Source: Escherichia coli (lineage in GTDB: Bacteria > Pseudomonadota > Gammaproteobacteria > Enterobacterales > Enterobacteriaceae). Taken from it: a stretch of DNA of 64,000 nucleotides. Below are positions 32,463 to 44,117 of this stretch, piece after piece. The position numbers and the translations under genes were made by a program. Within the stretch, counting starts at the first letter, position 1; every line of letters starts with the position of its first letter. Location of the stretch: assembly GCF_024700885.2 (NCBI RefSeq), contig NZ_CP117016.1; one strand, given 5' to 3'. The notes beneath the pieces are model-generated. The model was not told the origin of the DNA and did no database searches. It worked only from the letters and a program-made list of their open reading frames with translations.

Positions 32463-33041
32463 ATGTACCAGGATCTTATTCGTAACGAACTGAACGAAGC
32501 GGCGGAAACGCTGGCTAACTTTTTAAAAGATGACGCCAATATTCACGCCATTCAGCGCGCGGCGGTCCTGTTAGCAGACAGCTTTAAAGCCGGTGGCAAA
32601 GTGCTTTCCTGCGGCAACGGCGGCTCCCATTGCGACGCTATGCACTTTGCCGAAGAGTTGACCGGTCGCTACCGTGAAAACCGTCCGGGCTACCCGGCGA
32701 TTGCCATTTCTGACGTTAGTCATATTTCCTGCGTCGGTAACGATTTTGGTTTCAATGATATTTTCTCCCGTTACGTTGAAGCGGTAGGTCGCGAAGGCGA
32801 TGTACTGCTGGGGATCTCCACCTCCGGTAACTCTGCAAACGTGATCAAAGCGATCGCGGCGGCGCGTGAGAAGGGGATGAAAGTGATCACCCTGACCGGT
32901 AAAGACGGCGGTAAAATGGCTGGCACAGCGGATATCGAAATTCGTGTTCCGCACTTTGGTTATGCCGACCGCATTCAGGAGATCCACATTAAAGTGATCC
33001 ATATCCTGATCCAGTTAATTGAAAAAGAGATGGTTAAGTAA
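32463..33041 (+). CDS. gmhA: Phosphoheptose isomerase GmhA
   Basis: 192 aa from [23 protein letters not shown] domain ([20 protein letters not shown]). Confidence 0.9.
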
Positions 33042-33045
33042 GGTC

Positions 33046-33090
33046 TTTTCTCCCTCTCCCTTTCAGGGAGAGGGCCGGGGTGAGGGTAAC
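33046..33090. repeat. GC-rich imperfect palindromic intergenic element after gmhA
   Basis: ctccctctccc tttcag ggagaggg ccggggtgaggg; shares the ggagaggg...gggtgaggg motif with 42888-42930. Confidence 0.35.
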
Positions 33091-33162
33091 AGCCTGAACC
33101 TTTGTACTTTTTAATCAATCTTCGCCGGGGGCCATGTGCTCCCGCTGTTGTGGAGGTTACCC

Positions 33163-33930
33163 ATGTGCGAATTGCTCGGGATGAGCGCCAACGTCCCTAC
33201 CGATATCTGCTTTAGTTTCACCGGGCTTGTACAGCGTGGTGGTGGAACCGGGCCACATAAAGATGGCTGGGGCATCACCTTTTACGAAGGTAAAGGCTGT
33301 CGCACATTTAAAGATCCACAACCCAGCTTTAATTCCCCCATCGCCAAACTTGTCCAGGACTACCCGATAAAATCCTGTTCGGTGGTGGCTCATATTCGCC
33401 AGGCGAATCGGGGCGAGGTGGCGCTGGAAAATACTCACCCGTTTACCCGCGAGTTATGGGGGCGTAACTGGACTTATGCCCATAATGGGCAACTGACGGG
33501 CTATAAATCACTGGAAACCGGCAACTTCCGCCCGGTCGGTGAAACCGACAGCGAAAAAGCCTTCTGCTGGCTCCTGCATAAATTAACGCAGCGTTACCCG
33601 CGCACACCGGGCAACATGGCGGCAGTGTTTAAATATATCGCCTCACTGGCGGATGAACTGCGGCAGAAGGGCGTTTTCAACATGCTGCTTTCTGACGGGC
33701 GCTATGTAATGGCGTATTGCTCGACTAATTTACACTGGATCACCCGCCGCGCGCCGTTTGGCGTGGCAACGTTGCTGGATCAGGATGTGGAAATCGACTT
33801 CAGCTCGCAGACCACACCGAATGATGTGGTCACGGTGATTGCGACACAGCCGCTGACGGGCAATGAAACCTGGCAAAAGATTATGCCAGGCGAATGGCGC
33901 TTATTTTGCCTCGGGGAGCGTGTAGTTTGA
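33163..33930 (+). CDS. yafJ: Class II glutamine amidotransferase-like protein YafJ
   Basis: Starts [19 protein letters not shown] (N-terminal Cys nucleophile). Confidence 0.85.
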
Positions 33931-35691: not shown

Positions 35692-35747
35692 ATGGGTAAT
35701 ATTGACGAACTGGCAAAAGGTCGGATGCCACGCGGCATCCGACCTGT

Positions 35748-36104
35748 TTACATCTGGGCTGAAAACTCACGTTCTAAGACATCAACAATGAGCTGGTTTT
35801 TTGAAATGGAATGTTGTCTGGCGACGATGGTCAGCCGCGAATCAATGTGATGAGGAACACGAAGCGTCAGGCGTTTTTGCTCTTCTTCTTCACGAAAAGG
35901 GGCAATACCGTCCTCTTCACAATCCGCCATCCACTCATCCAGCGCGCTTTCGCCTTCACGATATAATGCCTCAATACTTGTGGCTACAAAGTCACAATAA
36001 CCGTTTACATTGAGGAACTTGCCGCGAAATGCGTTGATATCGGCTTCAAATGTCACTGCGGCTGGTTGACCTTTAATTGTGATAATGTTCGATGCTTTAT
36101 TCAT
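35748..36104 (-). CDS. HicB-like antitoxin with C-terminal ribbon-helix-helix
   Basis: 118 aa; HicB-like core (YCDFVATSIEALYREGESALDEWMADCEEDGIAPF) and an RHH-like tail (KRLTLRVPHHIDSRLTIVARQHSISKNQLIVDVLE); overlaps the upstream ORF by 8 nt. Confidence 0.5.
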   Translation of the reverse strand: MNKASNIITIKGQPAAVTFEADINAFRGKFLNVNGYCDFVATSIEALYREGESALDEWMADCEEDGIAPFREEEEQKRLTLRVPHHIDSRLTIVARQHSISKNQLIVDVLEREFSAQM

Positions 36105-36396
36105 AATCTACCCCTACACAGTTAACAAACCACTCCTTAAGACCTGCTACTGCGCCTTTATCCATCACATTCTTTGGATGTGGCTCATGTGTGCTGAATT
36201 TGGTCGTTCCAATCTGAAATTTTCGTCTGGAGCCGTTGTTATTTTTTATTGTTCCACCCACAGCTTTAATGAGTGCAACAACATCATCCCATTTAATTCC
36301 AGATTTTGGCGGCTCCGTCATTACATCGTCGAATGTTTTTCTATGACGAGAGCCTAGCGCGCTGACCTTAATCATACTATCAATCCATGACGTCAT
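36097..36396 (-). CDS. HicA-like toxin (YcfA family) with N-terminal extension
   Basis: 99 aa; HicA-like pattern GSRRKF...THEPHPKNVMDKGAVAGLKEW; first gene of the two-gene pair. Confidence 0.5.
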   Translation of the reverse strand: MTSWIDSMIKVSALGSRHRKTFDDVMTEPPKSGIKWDDVVALIKAVGGTIKNNNGSRRKFQIGTTKFSTHEPHPKNVMDKGAVAGLKEWFVNCVGVDYE

Positions 36397-36479
36397 TGTA
36401 TGGTGTCATCGTAGTCTCTTTGCAGTGTGACGTCAATTAATGGTGTCAGGTGCTGCAAAGCATGGAAAAGATTCCTCAA

Positions 36480-38573
36480 TCAACTCAACGCCCCCATAAT
36501 CTTCAACTCCAGCTCATCCGGCACTTCGTTATACGACAGCACATGCAGCCCCGGCGCAAACAATCTCGCATAGCGCGCCAGCAAAGGACGCAACTGCGGC
36601 GGCACCAGCAGCACCGGGTCTTTCCCCGCCGCTTTCATCTGCTCCTTCACCTGCGGCATCGTGATCTGAAACTGGTTGAGCATATTCGGGTCAACCGGTA
36701 CGCTGTCGAGCATCACTTTCCCGCCCTGTTGCGCCTGATTCACCACGTTGGTCAGCAGATTTTCCAGCTCATTATTCAGCGTATACACCGTCAGCTCCTG
36801 CTTGCGAACGAGCGGATGGGTAATGCTGCGCCGTAGCGCCAGGCGCACATCAGCTGCCAGCAGAATATGATCTTTGGTCACTGTGCTACTGGCGACCAGC
36901 ACGGTGGCGATGGTGACGATATCGCGCAGGGAAACGCCTTCAGTCAGTAGCGCCCGGTACACTTTCAGCAACTGGCTGTAATTGAGCGCCGCGCTCAAAT
37001 CTTCCGCCAGTCGCGGTGCCATCGACGACAAACGGTTATGCAGCTGAGTAATATCGTCATAGTTAAACAAATCAGGAATATAGCTGCGGACAATCTTGTT
37101 CACATGGGTGGCAATCACGCTGGCGCTGTCGATCACCTGATACCCCATATTCAGCGCCTTCGCTTTCTGCGCAGGCTGAATCCAGGTGACCGGCATCCCG
37201 TACGCCGGGTCGTTCCCCAATACGCCGTCTATCTCGCCGTAGGTTTCGCTGGAGGGCAGGGCCATCAGTTTATCCGCCGGAATATCCGCTTCATCAGCCT
37301 TAATGCCGTTGATGAAAATGGCGTACTGGCTGGGCTTGAGGCGGAAATTTTCCCGAATGCGGATCTCCGGCAGCAGCACGCCGTTGCCGTCGGAAATCAC
37401 CTGCCGCACGCCGCGAATCCGCTGGGTGAGCGGGTTACCTTGGGCTTTATCGACCAGCGCCACCAGCTTGTAGCCGAGGCTTAAGCTGATGGGCTCGATC
37501 AGCGGAATGGTTTCCCAACTGACCTGTTGCTCGCTGGTTTCAGTGATAGTGCGGGTCAGCGTTTCGAGACTTTTCTCTTCTGCCTCCGCCGCCTGCGGGC
37601 GTTTGCTCATCCGCCAGCCGGTAAAGCCAAGCAGGGCGCTGAACAGCAAAAACGGCAGATGCGGCATTCCCGGCACCACCGCCAGTACGAACATGATCCC
37701 GGTGGCGGTGTAGAGCACCGACGGGCTTGCCAGCAGCTGGTGGCGCACGTCATGGGCGATATCGCCGTTGTCGCTGACGCGGGTGACGATAATCGCCGCC
37801 GCGGTGGAAAGCAGCAGGGAAGGGATCTGCGCCACCAGGCCGTCGCCGATGGTCATCAGCACATATTGCTGGAAGGCGGCGTCGGCGCTCAGGTTGTATT
37901 TGAAGATCCCGATACAGACGCCGCCGATCAGGTTGATCGCCAGAATCATCATCCCGGCTATGGCATCCCCACGCACAAACTTCGATGCCCCGTCCATCGC
38001 GCCGTAGAAATCGGCCTCGCTGGCAACATCTTTACGCCGTGTTTGCGCCTGCGCCTGGTTGATCAACCCGGCGTTAAGATCGGCGTCAATCGCCATCTGT
38101 TTGCCGGGCATCGCGTCCAGGGTAAAGCGGGCGGAAACCTCGGAAATACGCTCGGCCCCTTTGGTGACGACGATAAAGTTGATGATCATCAGGATGATAA
38201 ACACCACGAAACCGACGACAAAGTTGCCGCCAATCACCACCTGACCAAATGACTCAATCACCTTACCTGCTGCGCCCGCGCCGAGATGCCCGTGCAGTAG
38301 CACCACGCGCGTAGAAGCAACGTTCAGCGTCAGGCGCATTAAGGTGGTGATCAGCAAAATGGTCGGGAACAGGCTGAATTCCAGCGGCCTTTTCGCCGAC
38401 ACCGCCACCAGCAGCACCATCACCGCCAGCACAATGTTGAAGGTGAACAGAATATCCAGCAGCGCAGGCGGCAGCGGCAAAATAACCATCGCCAGAATAC
38501 ACAGGATCACCAGCGGCACGCCGGGATTACCGCCGCGCAGTAGCGCGAGGAACGATTTAGTTGTTTTCGCCAT
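36480..38573 (-). CDS. lfhA: Flag-2 (lateral flagellar) export gate protein, FlhA homologue
   Basis: 697 aa, apparently full length; N-terminal TM region and FlhA signature (FTLDAMPGKQMAIDADLNAGLI). Confidence 0.85.
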   Translation of the reverse strand: MAKTTKSFLALLRGGNPGVPLVILCILAMVILPLPPALLDILFTFNIVLAVMVLLVAVSAKRPLEFSLFPTILLITTLMRLTLNVASTRVVLLHGHLGAGAAGKVIESFGQVVIGGNFVVGFVVFIILMIINFIVVTKGAERISEVSARFTLDAMPGKQMAIDADLNAGLINQAQAQTRRKDVASEADFYGAMDGASKFVRGDAIAGMMILAINLIGGVCIGIFKYNLSADAAFQQYVLMTIGDGLVAQIPSLLLSTAAAIIVTRVSDNGDIAHDVRHQLLASPSVLYTATGIMFVLAVVPGMPHLPFLLFSALLGFTGWRMSKRPQAAEAEEKSLETLTRTITETSEQQVSWETIPLIEPISLSLGYKLVALVDKAQGNPLTQRIRGVRQVISDGNGVLLPEIRIRENFRLKPSQYAIFINGIKADEADIPADKLMALPSSETYGEIDGVLGNDPAYGMPVTWIQPAQKAKALNMGYQVIDSASVIATHVNKIVRSYIPDLFNYDDITQLHNRLSSMAPRLAEDLSAALNYSQLLKVYRALLTEGVSLRDIVTIATVLVASSTVTKDHILLAADVRLALRRSITHPLVRKQELTVYTLNNELENLLTNVVNQAQQGGKVMLDSVPVDPNMLNQFQITMPQVKEQMKAAGKDPVLLVPPQLRPLLARYARLFAPGLHVLSYNEVPDELELKIMGALS

Positions 38574-41497: not shown

Positions 41498-41925
41498 GGT
41501 GCCAGGTCGTTGATATCGCGGGTGTTAAACTCCAGCACGCGCAGGCCGTACTTCTCGTTGACCACCACCACTTCTGCTTTGCCCAACAGGATATTGTTTA
41601 CTTTAATATCCAGCGGCTCCCCGGCGAGCTTATCCAGCTCAATCACCGTGTCGTCGTCGATGTTAAGGAGGTCGGCTAACATGATCTCTACTGATGACAC
41701 TTCCAGCGTTAAGGTCACCGGAATGCGTTTTAGCAGCGTCATCGAGTCGGAAAAACGGTCTTCCAGGCGGGTGACCAGCGTTTCAGCGTCGGCAGATTTC
41801 GCGACAGGCGCAACTTCATCGGTGAGGCCAAAATCCCCGGCTAAAATATCTTCTTGCTTACTCATGGCTATTCTCATTTTTGCCCGCCAGCTCCGACAAA
41901 AACAGTTTGTCTTTGTCTTCCACAA
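41494..41925 (-). CDS. lfiN: Flag-2 C-ring protein, FliN homologue
   Basis: 143 aa; SpoA-like C-terminus (IDDDTVIELDKLAGEPLDIKVNNILLGKAEVVVVNEKYGLRV). Confidence 0.7.
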   Translation of the reverse strand: MWKTKTNCFCRSWRAKMRIAMSKQEDILAGDFGLTDEVAPVAKSADAETLVTRLEDRFSDSMTLLKRIPVTLTLEVSSVEIMLADLLNIDDDTVIELDKLAGEPLDIKVNNILLGKAEVVVVNEKYGLRVLEFNTRDINDLAP

Positions 41926-42709
41926 TCAGGGCGCTAAATAATTCAGATTGCCCAATCGCCACCGGGAACGTTTCTCCCAGCGAGATGGGTAAAATATCCC
42001 CGGCTTTTATCTGCGTGAGATCCGCGACATTCAGCGACAGCTCGGCGATTTTGACGTTCAGGGTCAGCGGCAGAGAGCGGATAATCTCTTTAATCAGGGC
42101 CGGTTTATTAACGGATTTCGCCACCTGCTGCGGTTTACTGTGCTCGCTGTGGCGGATCAGATTCAAAATAAAATCGGTGTGGGCGTCGTCGAGCAAAATA
42201 CGAAAACTGCTCTCTTCATCGCCCGCAAGGGTAAAGGTTAATTGATACGCCCAGTGGGTAATCACCGTGCTGCTATCCAGCTTTAATTTCAGCGCAATAC
42301 CGGAGGTTTGCAGATTAAATATCAGCGTGCAGATATCCAGCGCGAGTCGGTTTTTTAAACGAGTTTCGGTTTTGGTCGGCAGCCCGTTATGCGCTTTCGC
42401 CTCTTCAAGAGAGGACTCCAGACCATAAAAATTGCCCAGCAGCATTAACAATAAGGAGCGATCAATATCAAACGCCAGATGCCCGACCTGGGAAACCATC
42501 AGTTCGGCGTTTTTATTAATAATATCCATTTCGCAGCCAATCTTTTTTAAGGTGATATTGCTGCGATGCTTTTTGAGAAAGTAGCTGCCCAGATGCGAAT
42601 CAATCACGTCAAAATTCCCCGTAAACAGGGTCGGCAGGCGATGGTAGGGGCGTCCGAGCCGATTACCTTCTAATTTAAAGATGCCTGGCGTTTTACTGTA
42701 CTTCAGCAT
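41858..42709 (-). CDS. lfiM: Flag-2 C-ring protein, FliM homologue
   Basis: 283 aa; position upstream of the FliN homologue; C-terminal FliN-like segment. Confidence 0.65.
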   Translation of the reverse strand: MLKYSKTPGIFKLEGNRLGRPYHRLPTLFTGNFDVIDSHLGSYFLKKHRSNITLKKIGCEMDIINKNAELMVSQVGHLAFDIDRSLLLMLLGNFYGLESSLEEAKAHNGLPTKTETRLKNRLALDICTLIFNLQTSGIALKLKLDSSTVITHWAYQLTFTLAGDEESSFRILLDDAHTDFILNLIRHSEHSKPQQVAKSVNKPALIKEIIRSLPLTLNVKIAELSLNVADLTQIKAGDILPISLGETFPVAIGQSELFSALIVEDKDKLFLSELAGKNENSHE

Positions 42710-42887
42710 GGCTTACTTTCTCTGCTGTAATGGTATGGGTGTTTCTGTGCACGCAAATCCGGCTGTGACACAAGGTGAGGTATTAAATAGAGGGGGAGTG
42801 AAAGGGGCAAATTATTAATAGGATGAAAAAATAATTAATCGATTAATTGCTTAATGGGAGTGATTTTCGCCAATCAGTCTGCGGTCT

Positions 42888-42930
42888 GTCCCCTCGCCCC
42901 ATCCGGGGAGAGGGTTAGGGTGAGGGGGCA
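42888..42930. repeat. GC-rich palindromic intergenic element in the lfiM-lafK gap
   Basis: gtcccctcgcccc atcc ggggagagggttagggtgaggggg; same motif family as 33046-33090. Confidence 0.35.
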
Positions 42931-43081
42931 TCACAGATGTCCAAATTAACAGTATTAATATCTAACTAATTGTTTACCATCAAATAATATTTTTATTATC
43001 GTTTAATTCGAACTTGTTAATCCCGCCGGTGATACGCTTCAGAACATCCTGTTTTCTGTCGCTACTTATATCGTTCACCCT

Positions 43082-43349
43082 ATGTCTGAACTTATTGCAA
43101 CTGCCGCTTCCAGCATTAACGCTTTTACTCTGGCAAAGCGTGTCGCCGCATTTAACGTGCCGGTGCTCATTCAGGGCGAAACCGGCGCGGGCAAAGAATG
43201 CGTGGCAAAATATATTCACACCGTCGCCTTTGGTGAAAATGATAACGCGCCCTATATCGGCGTGAACTGCGCGGCGATCCCGGAAAACATGCTGGAAGCT
43301 ACATTATTTGGCTACGACAAAGGCGCATTTACCGGCGCAATTGCCAGCG
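43082..43349 (+). pseudogene. lafK: 5' fragment of a sigma-54-dependent activator (LafK-like) truncated by IS1
   Basis: AAA+ sigma-54 activator motifs (VLIQGETGAGKECVAKYIH...NCAAIPENMLEATLFGYDKGAFTGA); the reading frame runs into the IS1 inverted repeat and terminates. Confidence 0.7.
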
Positions 43350-44117
43350 GGTGATGCTGCCAACTTACTGATTTAGTGTATGATGGTGTTTTTGAGGTGC
43401 TCCAGTGGCTTCTGTTTCTATCAGCTGTCCCTCCTGTTCAGCTACTGACGGGGTGGTGCGTAACGGCAAAAGCACCGCCGGACATCAGCGCTATCTCTGC
43501 TCTCACTGCCGTAAAACATGGCAACTGCAGTTCACTTACACCGCTTCTCAACCCGGTACGCACCAGAAAATCATTGATATGGCCATGAATGGCGTTGGAT
43601 GCCGGGCAACCGCCCGCATTATGGGCGTTGGCCTCAACACGATTTTCCGCCATTTAAAAAACTCAGGCCGCAGTCGGTAACCTCGCGCATACAGCCGGGC
43701 AGTGACGTCATCGTCTGCGCGGAAATGGACGAACAGTGGGGATACGTCGGGGCTAAATCGCGCCAGCGCTGGCTGTTTTACGCGTATGACAGGCTCCGGA
43801 AGACGGTTGTTGCGCACGTATTCGGTGAACGCACTATGGCGACGCTGGGGCGTCTTATGAGCCTGCTGTCACCCTTTGACGTGGTGATATGGATGACGGA
43901 TGGCTGGCCGCTGTATGAATCCCGCCTGAAGGGAAAGCTGCACGTAATCAGCAAGCGATATACGCAGCGAATTGAGCGGCATAACCTGAATCTGAGGCAG
44001 CACCTGGCACGGCTGGGACGGAAGTCGCTGTCGTTCTCAAAATCGGTGGAGCTGCATGACAAAGTCATCGGGCATTATCTGAACATAAAACACTATCAAT
44101 AAGTTGGAGTCATTACC
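43350..44117 (+). mobile_element. insAB: IS1 insertion sequence (768 bp) encoding InsA and InsB
   Basis: Terminal inverted repeats ggtgatgctgccaacttactgat (left) and atcaataagttggagtcattacc (right); InsA ORF 43405..43680, InsB ORF 43599..44102. Flanking 9-mers differ (ttgccagcg vs ggaatgcct). Confidence 0.9.

Follow-up and report, generated by a model that had tools for sequence, protein, structure and literature searches.

Introduction

An intergenic repeat known in Escherichia coli since the 1990s has been named in turn BoxC (Bergler et al. 1992), PIT (Hoyne et al. 2000), for potential intrastrand triplex element (PMC4666352), and TMECO (Holder et al. 2015, PMC4666352). Its consensus, CCCTCNCCC-N3-6-GGGNGAGGG-N3-GGGNGAGGG (Holder et al. 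2015, NAR 43:10126, PMC4666352), comprises a C-rich arm and two G-rich arms separated by two loops. Copies are assigned to types by loop 2, with TTA marking type A and CCG marking type B, and by a stem that is either perfect or carries one mismatch at C-arm position 6, type A mm being the commonest in K-12 (PMC4666352). Copy numbers given in the literature for K-12 are 23-33, and a wide distribution has already been reported, with 3,610 copies in 262 genomes (PMC4666352). CD and NMR on oligonucleotides showed that the G-rich strand alone forms a very stable hairpin, melting at 70-82 °C, in which the second G-arm folds onto the duplex to give a purine-motif triplex; addition of the complementary strand yields an ordinary duplex. 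In vivo, footprinting gave no sign of the triplex and revealed no protection (PMC4666352). Hoyne & Maher (2002), as far as their work is summarised in PMC4666352, observed neither promoter nor terminator function and saw RNA polymerase unaffected; these negative reporter data and the triplex data come from a literature summary of earlier work at loci other than the two described here.

We analysed a 64-kb stretch of an E. coli chromosome (hereafter the window), which carries one copy in the gap between gmhA and yafJ (site A) and another in the gap between lfiM and lafK (site B). The three-block core, the TTA and CCG loop types, the intergenic location, the flanks and the copy number are all as described for BoxC/PIT/TMECO, and nothing essential is different at either site.

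Three other systems invite comparison. REP/BIME elements are likewise short, GC-rich, hairpin-forming, intergenic and multi-copy, and in other E. coli they take up the positions of sites A and B; however, their sequence is unrelated, they have two arms rather than three blocks, and their palindromic units are mobilised by the RAYT transposase, whereas no transposase is known for BoxC. An intrinsic (Rho-independent) terminator is also a GC-rich stem-loop downstream of a gene, a likeness confined to site A, but BoxC has no U/T tract, site B lies upstream of both its neighbours, and the family is reported not to terminate transcription. H-DNA and other triplex- or quadruplex-forming repeats share with BoxC the purine-rich blocks suited to Hoogsteen-type triads and a link to local genome instability; H-DNA, by contrast, involves a long mirror repeat in duplex DNA, whereas BoxC forms an intrastrand three-block triplex from one strand, in vitro.

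Two BoxC copies in intergenic regions of the window

The 2 kb around site A, which encode fadE, gmhA (lpcA), yafJ and dpaA, are 100% identical to several complete E. coli genomes, e.g. that of strain 1190. Exact matches to the BoxC/PIT/TMECO consensus were found at 33052-33086 (site A) and 42891-42926 (site B), both on the + strand, and the three-block pattern thus occurred twice against an expectation of zero (0 matches in 100 shuffles). The G-rich half common to both sites, GGGAGAGGGNNNGGGTGAGGG, was also present twice in the 64 kb with up to three mismatches allowed (shuffles, 0.00-0.08), and no third, degenerate copy was detected in the window at that tolerance.

At site A, positions 33040-33095 read ...taaggtcttttct CCCTCTCCC tttca GGGAGAGGG ccg GGGTGAGGG taacag.... 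The C-rich arm CCCTCTCCC (33052-33060, +) is followed by loop 1, TTTCA (33061-33065, +), the first G-rich arm GGGAGAGGG (33066-33074, +), which pairs perfectly with the C-arm in the fold prediction, loop 2, CCG (33075-33077, +), and the second G-rich arm GGGTGAGGG (33078-33086, +), a candidate third strand of a purine-motif triplex. According to allele alignments, the full unit of about 50 nt spans 33043-33092 (+), lying between the gmhA stop codon and the CCTGAA at which homology to the K-12 allele resumes. Site A starts 10 nt after the stop codon (TAA, 33039-33041) of gmhA/lpcA (32463-33041, +; start inferred from the 579-bp K-12 gmhA), and yafJ (33163-33930, +) lies downstream.

At site B, positions 42880-42935 read ...ggtctgtc CCCTCGCCC catccg GGGAGAGGG tta GGGTGAGGG ggcat..., comprising the C-rich arm CCCTCGCCC (42891-42899, +), loop 1, CATCCG (42900-42905, +), the first G-rich arm GGGAGAGGG (42906-42914, +), loop 2, TTA (42915-42917, +), and the second G-rich arm GGGTGAGGG (42918-42926, +), the partner of the C-arm in the predicted minimum-energy fold. 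The full unit is placed approximately at 42882-42931 (+), genomic copies aligning to 42870-42934 at most. Both neighbouring genes are transcribed away from the repeat: lfiM, a FliM/FliN-family gene of the Flag-2 cluster (41858-42709, -), has its start 182 nt from site B, and the 5' fragment of lafK, a sigma-54 activator (43082-43347, +), which ends at an IS1, has its start 155 nt away, so that the repeat is upstream of each.

An earlier, sequence-only reading of this DNA had reported a GC-rich motif shared by these two gene contexts, with an upstream complementary C-rich arm; the motif is there in both places (two copies against 0.00-0.08 from shuffles), and the arm provides ten perfect pairs at site A and pairs with one G·A mismatch at site B. 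Its proposal of a small interspersed palindromic repeat family was right, as borne out by the exact consensus match and by the genome-wide search described below. The notion of a simple two-arm palindrome did not hold: the element has three parts, and the second G-rich arm is a functional third block that had been missed.

Site A is of type B, with CCG as loop 2 and a perfect stem, and site B is of type A mm, with TTA as loop 2 and a G at C-arm position 6. We compared their flanks with those of ten further E. coli copies (hrpB-mrcB, yagA-yagE, xynR-argF, fepB-entC, ygfF-gcvP, alx-sstT), in which type B copies have an upstream TTTTCT/CC in common, and type A copies an upstream GTC and a downstream GAACAG. 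The flanks of site A, TTTTCT upstream as in type B and TAACAG downstream, fit its type; at site B, the upstream flank GGTCTGTC follows the type A pattern and the downstream flank is only loosely similar. Alignments of other genomic copies to site A cover 56 nt (33038-33093), a span that matches the classical BoxC length in the literature, giving a unit of roughly 50-56 bp.

A 48-nt probe from site B matched 5,425 of the 5,426 complete E. coli genomes searched, at between 2 and 29 places in each (median, 17). The site B 37-mer is identical to TMECO no. 153 of strain SMS-3-5 (NC_010498, 261597-261633; Supplementary Table S8, PMC4666352), and our own search returned a 100% match to site B at that same SMS-3-5 position. 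For the site A sequence, the part of the Holder et al. 2015 supplementary catalogue that was searched contained no match. The two sites are thus almost certainly copies of BoxC/PIT/TMECO; the family and the site B copy were already known, and the finding is an ordinary one. For annotation, both sites should be labelled as BoxC/TMECO repeat copies and not as terminators or regulatory sites.

An Rfam scan of the window at gathering thresholds returned only a tRNA elsewhere, Rfam holding no family for BoxC. The hits to mir-320 and Antizyme_FSE in permissive Rfam scans, both eukaryotic families, were set aside as sub-threshold chance matches.

Predicted hairpin and triplex structures

Fold prediction for site A yielded a hairpin of 10 perfect base pairs, formed by the C-arm with the first G-arm, either as RNA or as single-stranded DNA. 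The DNA fold has an energy of -11 kcal/mol (z = -2.65). Over both sites the predicted hairpins amount to -9 to -11 kcal/mol as DNA and to -20 to -31 kcal/mol as RNA, yet the RNA fold of site A is ordinary for its composition (z = -0.57), because equally biased shuffles also fold well. At site B, the C-arm pairs in the minimum-energy fold with the second G-arm and not with the first; the G at C-arm position 6 forms a G·T wobble with the second G-arm and a G·A mismatch with the first.

By inspection, the antiparallel G-arms of site A present 7 G*G, 1 A*A and 1 T*A, in compliance with the base rules for purine-motif triads. These base rules make an intrastrand triplex a candidate structure at the two sites in the window.

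Allelic variation and turnover of the intergenic gaps

Both copies are lineage-specific and belong to a minority lineage: the gmhA/BoxC junction of site A was found in 329 of 5,426 genomes (about 6% of complete genomes), and site B in its context in 57 of 5,426.

Between the fixed boundaries TAAG ... CCTGAA, the gmhA-yafJ gap has four alleles. The first carries three REPs in alternating orientation (K-12, WP4-W18, ET350), the second a single REP (strain 54214), the third the intact BoxC seen in the window, and the fourth a BoxC without TCTCCC in the C-arm, a 6-bp deletion of the slippage type (strain HB42). In HB42-like strains, the BoxC that follows gmhA has tctccctctccc reduced to tctccc at the equivalent of window positions 33050-33055, which destroys the full stem. 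In the REP alleles, the REP hairpin starts 6 nt after the gmhA stop codon. A synthetic empty-site junction, used as a query for an unoccupied gmhA-yafJ allele from which the insertion boundaries could be read, had no one-piece match among the rows sampled.

At lfiM-lafK, other Flag-2-carrying strains have a two-REP BIME at the position of site B (window 42829-42965), and the segment exchanged, about 135 bp, is longer than the BoxC repeat itself. The REP signature GCCKGATGCGRCG ... CTTATCMGGCCTAC had no match in the 64-kb window, while the alternative alleles carry one to three at the same positions. BoxC insertions in BIME-containing intergenic regions are said to have been described by Bachellier et al. 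in 1997.

The adk-hemH gap, which contains a BoxC in K-12, gave a different picture. About half of the genomes are without that copy (no place covering 80% of the query), and in the two examined, EDL933 and ATCC 25922, the gap is occupied by an unrelated hairpin cassette of about 55 nt that is not a REP. We therefore rejected BoxC/REP allelism as a general rule, because the alternative allele at adk-hemH is a different hairpin cassette. BoxC and REP are alternative occupants of the same intergenic slots at gmhA-yafJ and lfiM-lafK, and not at adk-hemH. Collectively, these alleles show that the gmhA-yafJ, lfiM-lafK and adk-hemH gaps turn over as cassettes, in agreement with the published observation that TMECO loci vary more from strain to strain than control loci do (PMC4666352).

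Copies beyond E. coli

We scanned one genome per species for the exact pattern; the matches listed demonstrate presence in distant taxa and are not a survey. Among them were a Candidatus Methylomirabilota genome (at least 13 copies), Mitsuaria chitosanitabida, Candidatus Contendobacter and one unclassified genome. In Mitsuaria chitosanitabida, at least 143 copies were present in the loci examined, mostly as -/+ inverted pairs 30-272 bp apart.

With few exceptions, the arms in four unrelated lineages read CCCTC[T/G]CCC, GGGAGAGGG and GGGTGAGGG, the second G-arm being GGGAGAGGG in 28 Mitsuaria copies. The free consensus positions were mostly filled as in E. coli: the C-arm has T or G, the first G-arm has A, and the second G-arm has T with an occasional A. 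Between E. coli and the distant copies listed, loops and flanks differ from lineage to lineage.

As further observations on Mitsuaria, 27 of 30 close pairs are in the -/+ orientation, opposite to the +/- pairs of E. coli, and its copies all share one loop 1, GCTTGC, and one downstream sequence, TCTTCGGGC. An alternative-hairpin model was also considered; the correlation that it entails between T/G in the C-arm and T/A in the second G-arm was not significant over 144 Mitsuaria copies (Fisher p = 0.08).

Possible roles of the two copies

The best reading of the two copies is that of an intergenic repeat which is prone to form structures, probably has no regulatory role and would affect DNA stability if it affects anything; we put the probability of this reading at roughly 60%. 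BoxC would then not regulate gmhA, yafJ, lfiM or lafK, and would probably be a repeat, selfish or neutral, that lodges in intergenic gaps tolerant of it. It would act, if at all, at the DNA level, where a transient hairpin or triplex on single-stranded DNA, during replication or repair, might lead to slippage, small deletions and cassette turnover. Against this reading stands the identity of the core 9-mers in Methylomirabilota, Mitsuaria and Contendobacter, where the loops and flanks differ; a purely neutral repeat does not explain the same 9-mers in distant bacteria, a hint of selection for the sequence itself or of a dedicated protein.

A candidate recognition site for a sequence-specific protein, whether a trans-acting recombinase or transposase or a nucleoid protein, would explain both the spread of the repeat and the invariance of the 9-mers. 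Consistent with such a site are the same bases at free (N) positions in four unrelated lineages with lineage-specific loops and flanks, the very high copy number in Mitsuaria, and the location of both window copies in slots that hold REPs in other strains, REPs being dependent on a dedicated transposase. However, no protein of this kind is known, and the repeat was not associated with mobile elements in the study of Holder et al. 2015 (PMC4666352). Because the pattern search itself required the arms, the three free positions alone are informative on invariance, and the triplex base rules would also constrain these. A protein-recognised site thus appears possible in principle and, on this balance, unlikely.

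The sequence-only reading had also suggested a role in termination or protein binding, while noting that neither site is followed by a clear T-run. The latter was borne out at both sites, and promoter and terminator scans of the two intergenic regions revealed no terminator-like or sigma-70-like site. Site B lies upstream of both lfiM and lafK and is therefore unable to terminate either gene; in K-12, a BoxC pair in fepB-entC is likewise located between divergent genes. Together with the published reporter tests, negative as far as they are summarised in the literature, these observations speak against termination.

A role at the RNA level could apply to site A only, as a stabiliser of the gmhA 3' end, as a terminator that is weak or helped by Rho, or as a brake coupled to translation, in the manner of REPs. 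REPs near stop codons have roles in mRNA stability and translation. An effect on gmhA has a low likelihood and is conceivable because a stable hairpin, perfect over 10 bp, begins 10 nt past the stop codon, and REP hairpins take that place in other strains, beginning 6 nt past it. The lack of a T-run, the ordinary RNA fold (z = -0.57) and the absence of terminator activity from the published tests, in so far as these have been summarised, count against it, and the model is inapplicable between divergent genes, as at site B and in fepB-entC. We consider an RNA-level role for site A quite doubtful.

A bolder version of protein recognition would have BoxC enter or replace REP/BIME slots non-randomly, as at both window sites, with a putative trans-acting protein that recognises the 9-mers and thereby keeps them identical across phyla. 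We hold this to be very unlikely; if true, enterobacteria would have in BoxC a second replicator system that, like REP, depends on a protein.

The G-rich half GGGAGAGGGNNNGGGTGAGGG contains four G3 runs with 3-nt loops and conforms at both sites to the G3-N1-7 x4 rule for G-quadruplexes. NMR imino signals of the full element nevertheless fit a triplex instead (PMC4666352), and the adjacent C-arm competes for one of the G-arms, which makes a G-quadruplex-forming element highly improbable. Chance resemblance of two GC-rich stretches is refuted: 100 shuffles gave 0 matches, and nearly all 5,426 genomes carry the repeat (median, 17 places per genome).

On how BoxC spreads and on any function it may have, the two copies go no further than published work; their small added value is that both are allelic to REP/BIME and that the core 9-mers are unchanged in very distant bacteria.

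Genomic neighbourhood

Several features of the surrounding DNA were recorded in the course of the comparison. Only the first 266 nt of lafK are kept (43082-43347), followed by an IS1 (43350-44117) that is 99% identical to the K-12 IS1 and then by lafS, lafT, lafU and dinB. Since lafK is cut by IS1 and lafS comes next, the middle of the Flag-2 cluster is missing in this strain; the gap is about 420 bp from site B.

In K-12, rayT and six flanking REPs lie between yafL and lfhA. They are absent at window positions 35692-36480, the K-12 counterpart of which is 36459-37335 of the extracted K-12 segment. The position of rayT is taken here by two small - strand ORFs (35748-36104 and 36097-36396), which might be a toxin-antitoxin pair. 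The nlpE-yaeF gap measures 29 bp with a plain hairpin in the window versus 199 bp with two REPs in K-12. REP signatures numbered 0 in the 64-kb window and 1 in a further 50 kb of strain 1190 (3,900,000-3,949,999), against 12 in the corresponding 50 kb of K-12. A 50-kb sample of strain 1190 taken for counting REPs was uninformative, the orthologous K-12 region having none either. The lineage may be REP-poor.

Window positions 1-28250 have no counterpart in the K-12 region beside fadE, and the adjacent DNA in strain 1190 carries type VI secretion genes (tssA, tssM, Hcp) beside an aspV tRNA, which suggests that this part of the window is a genomic island.
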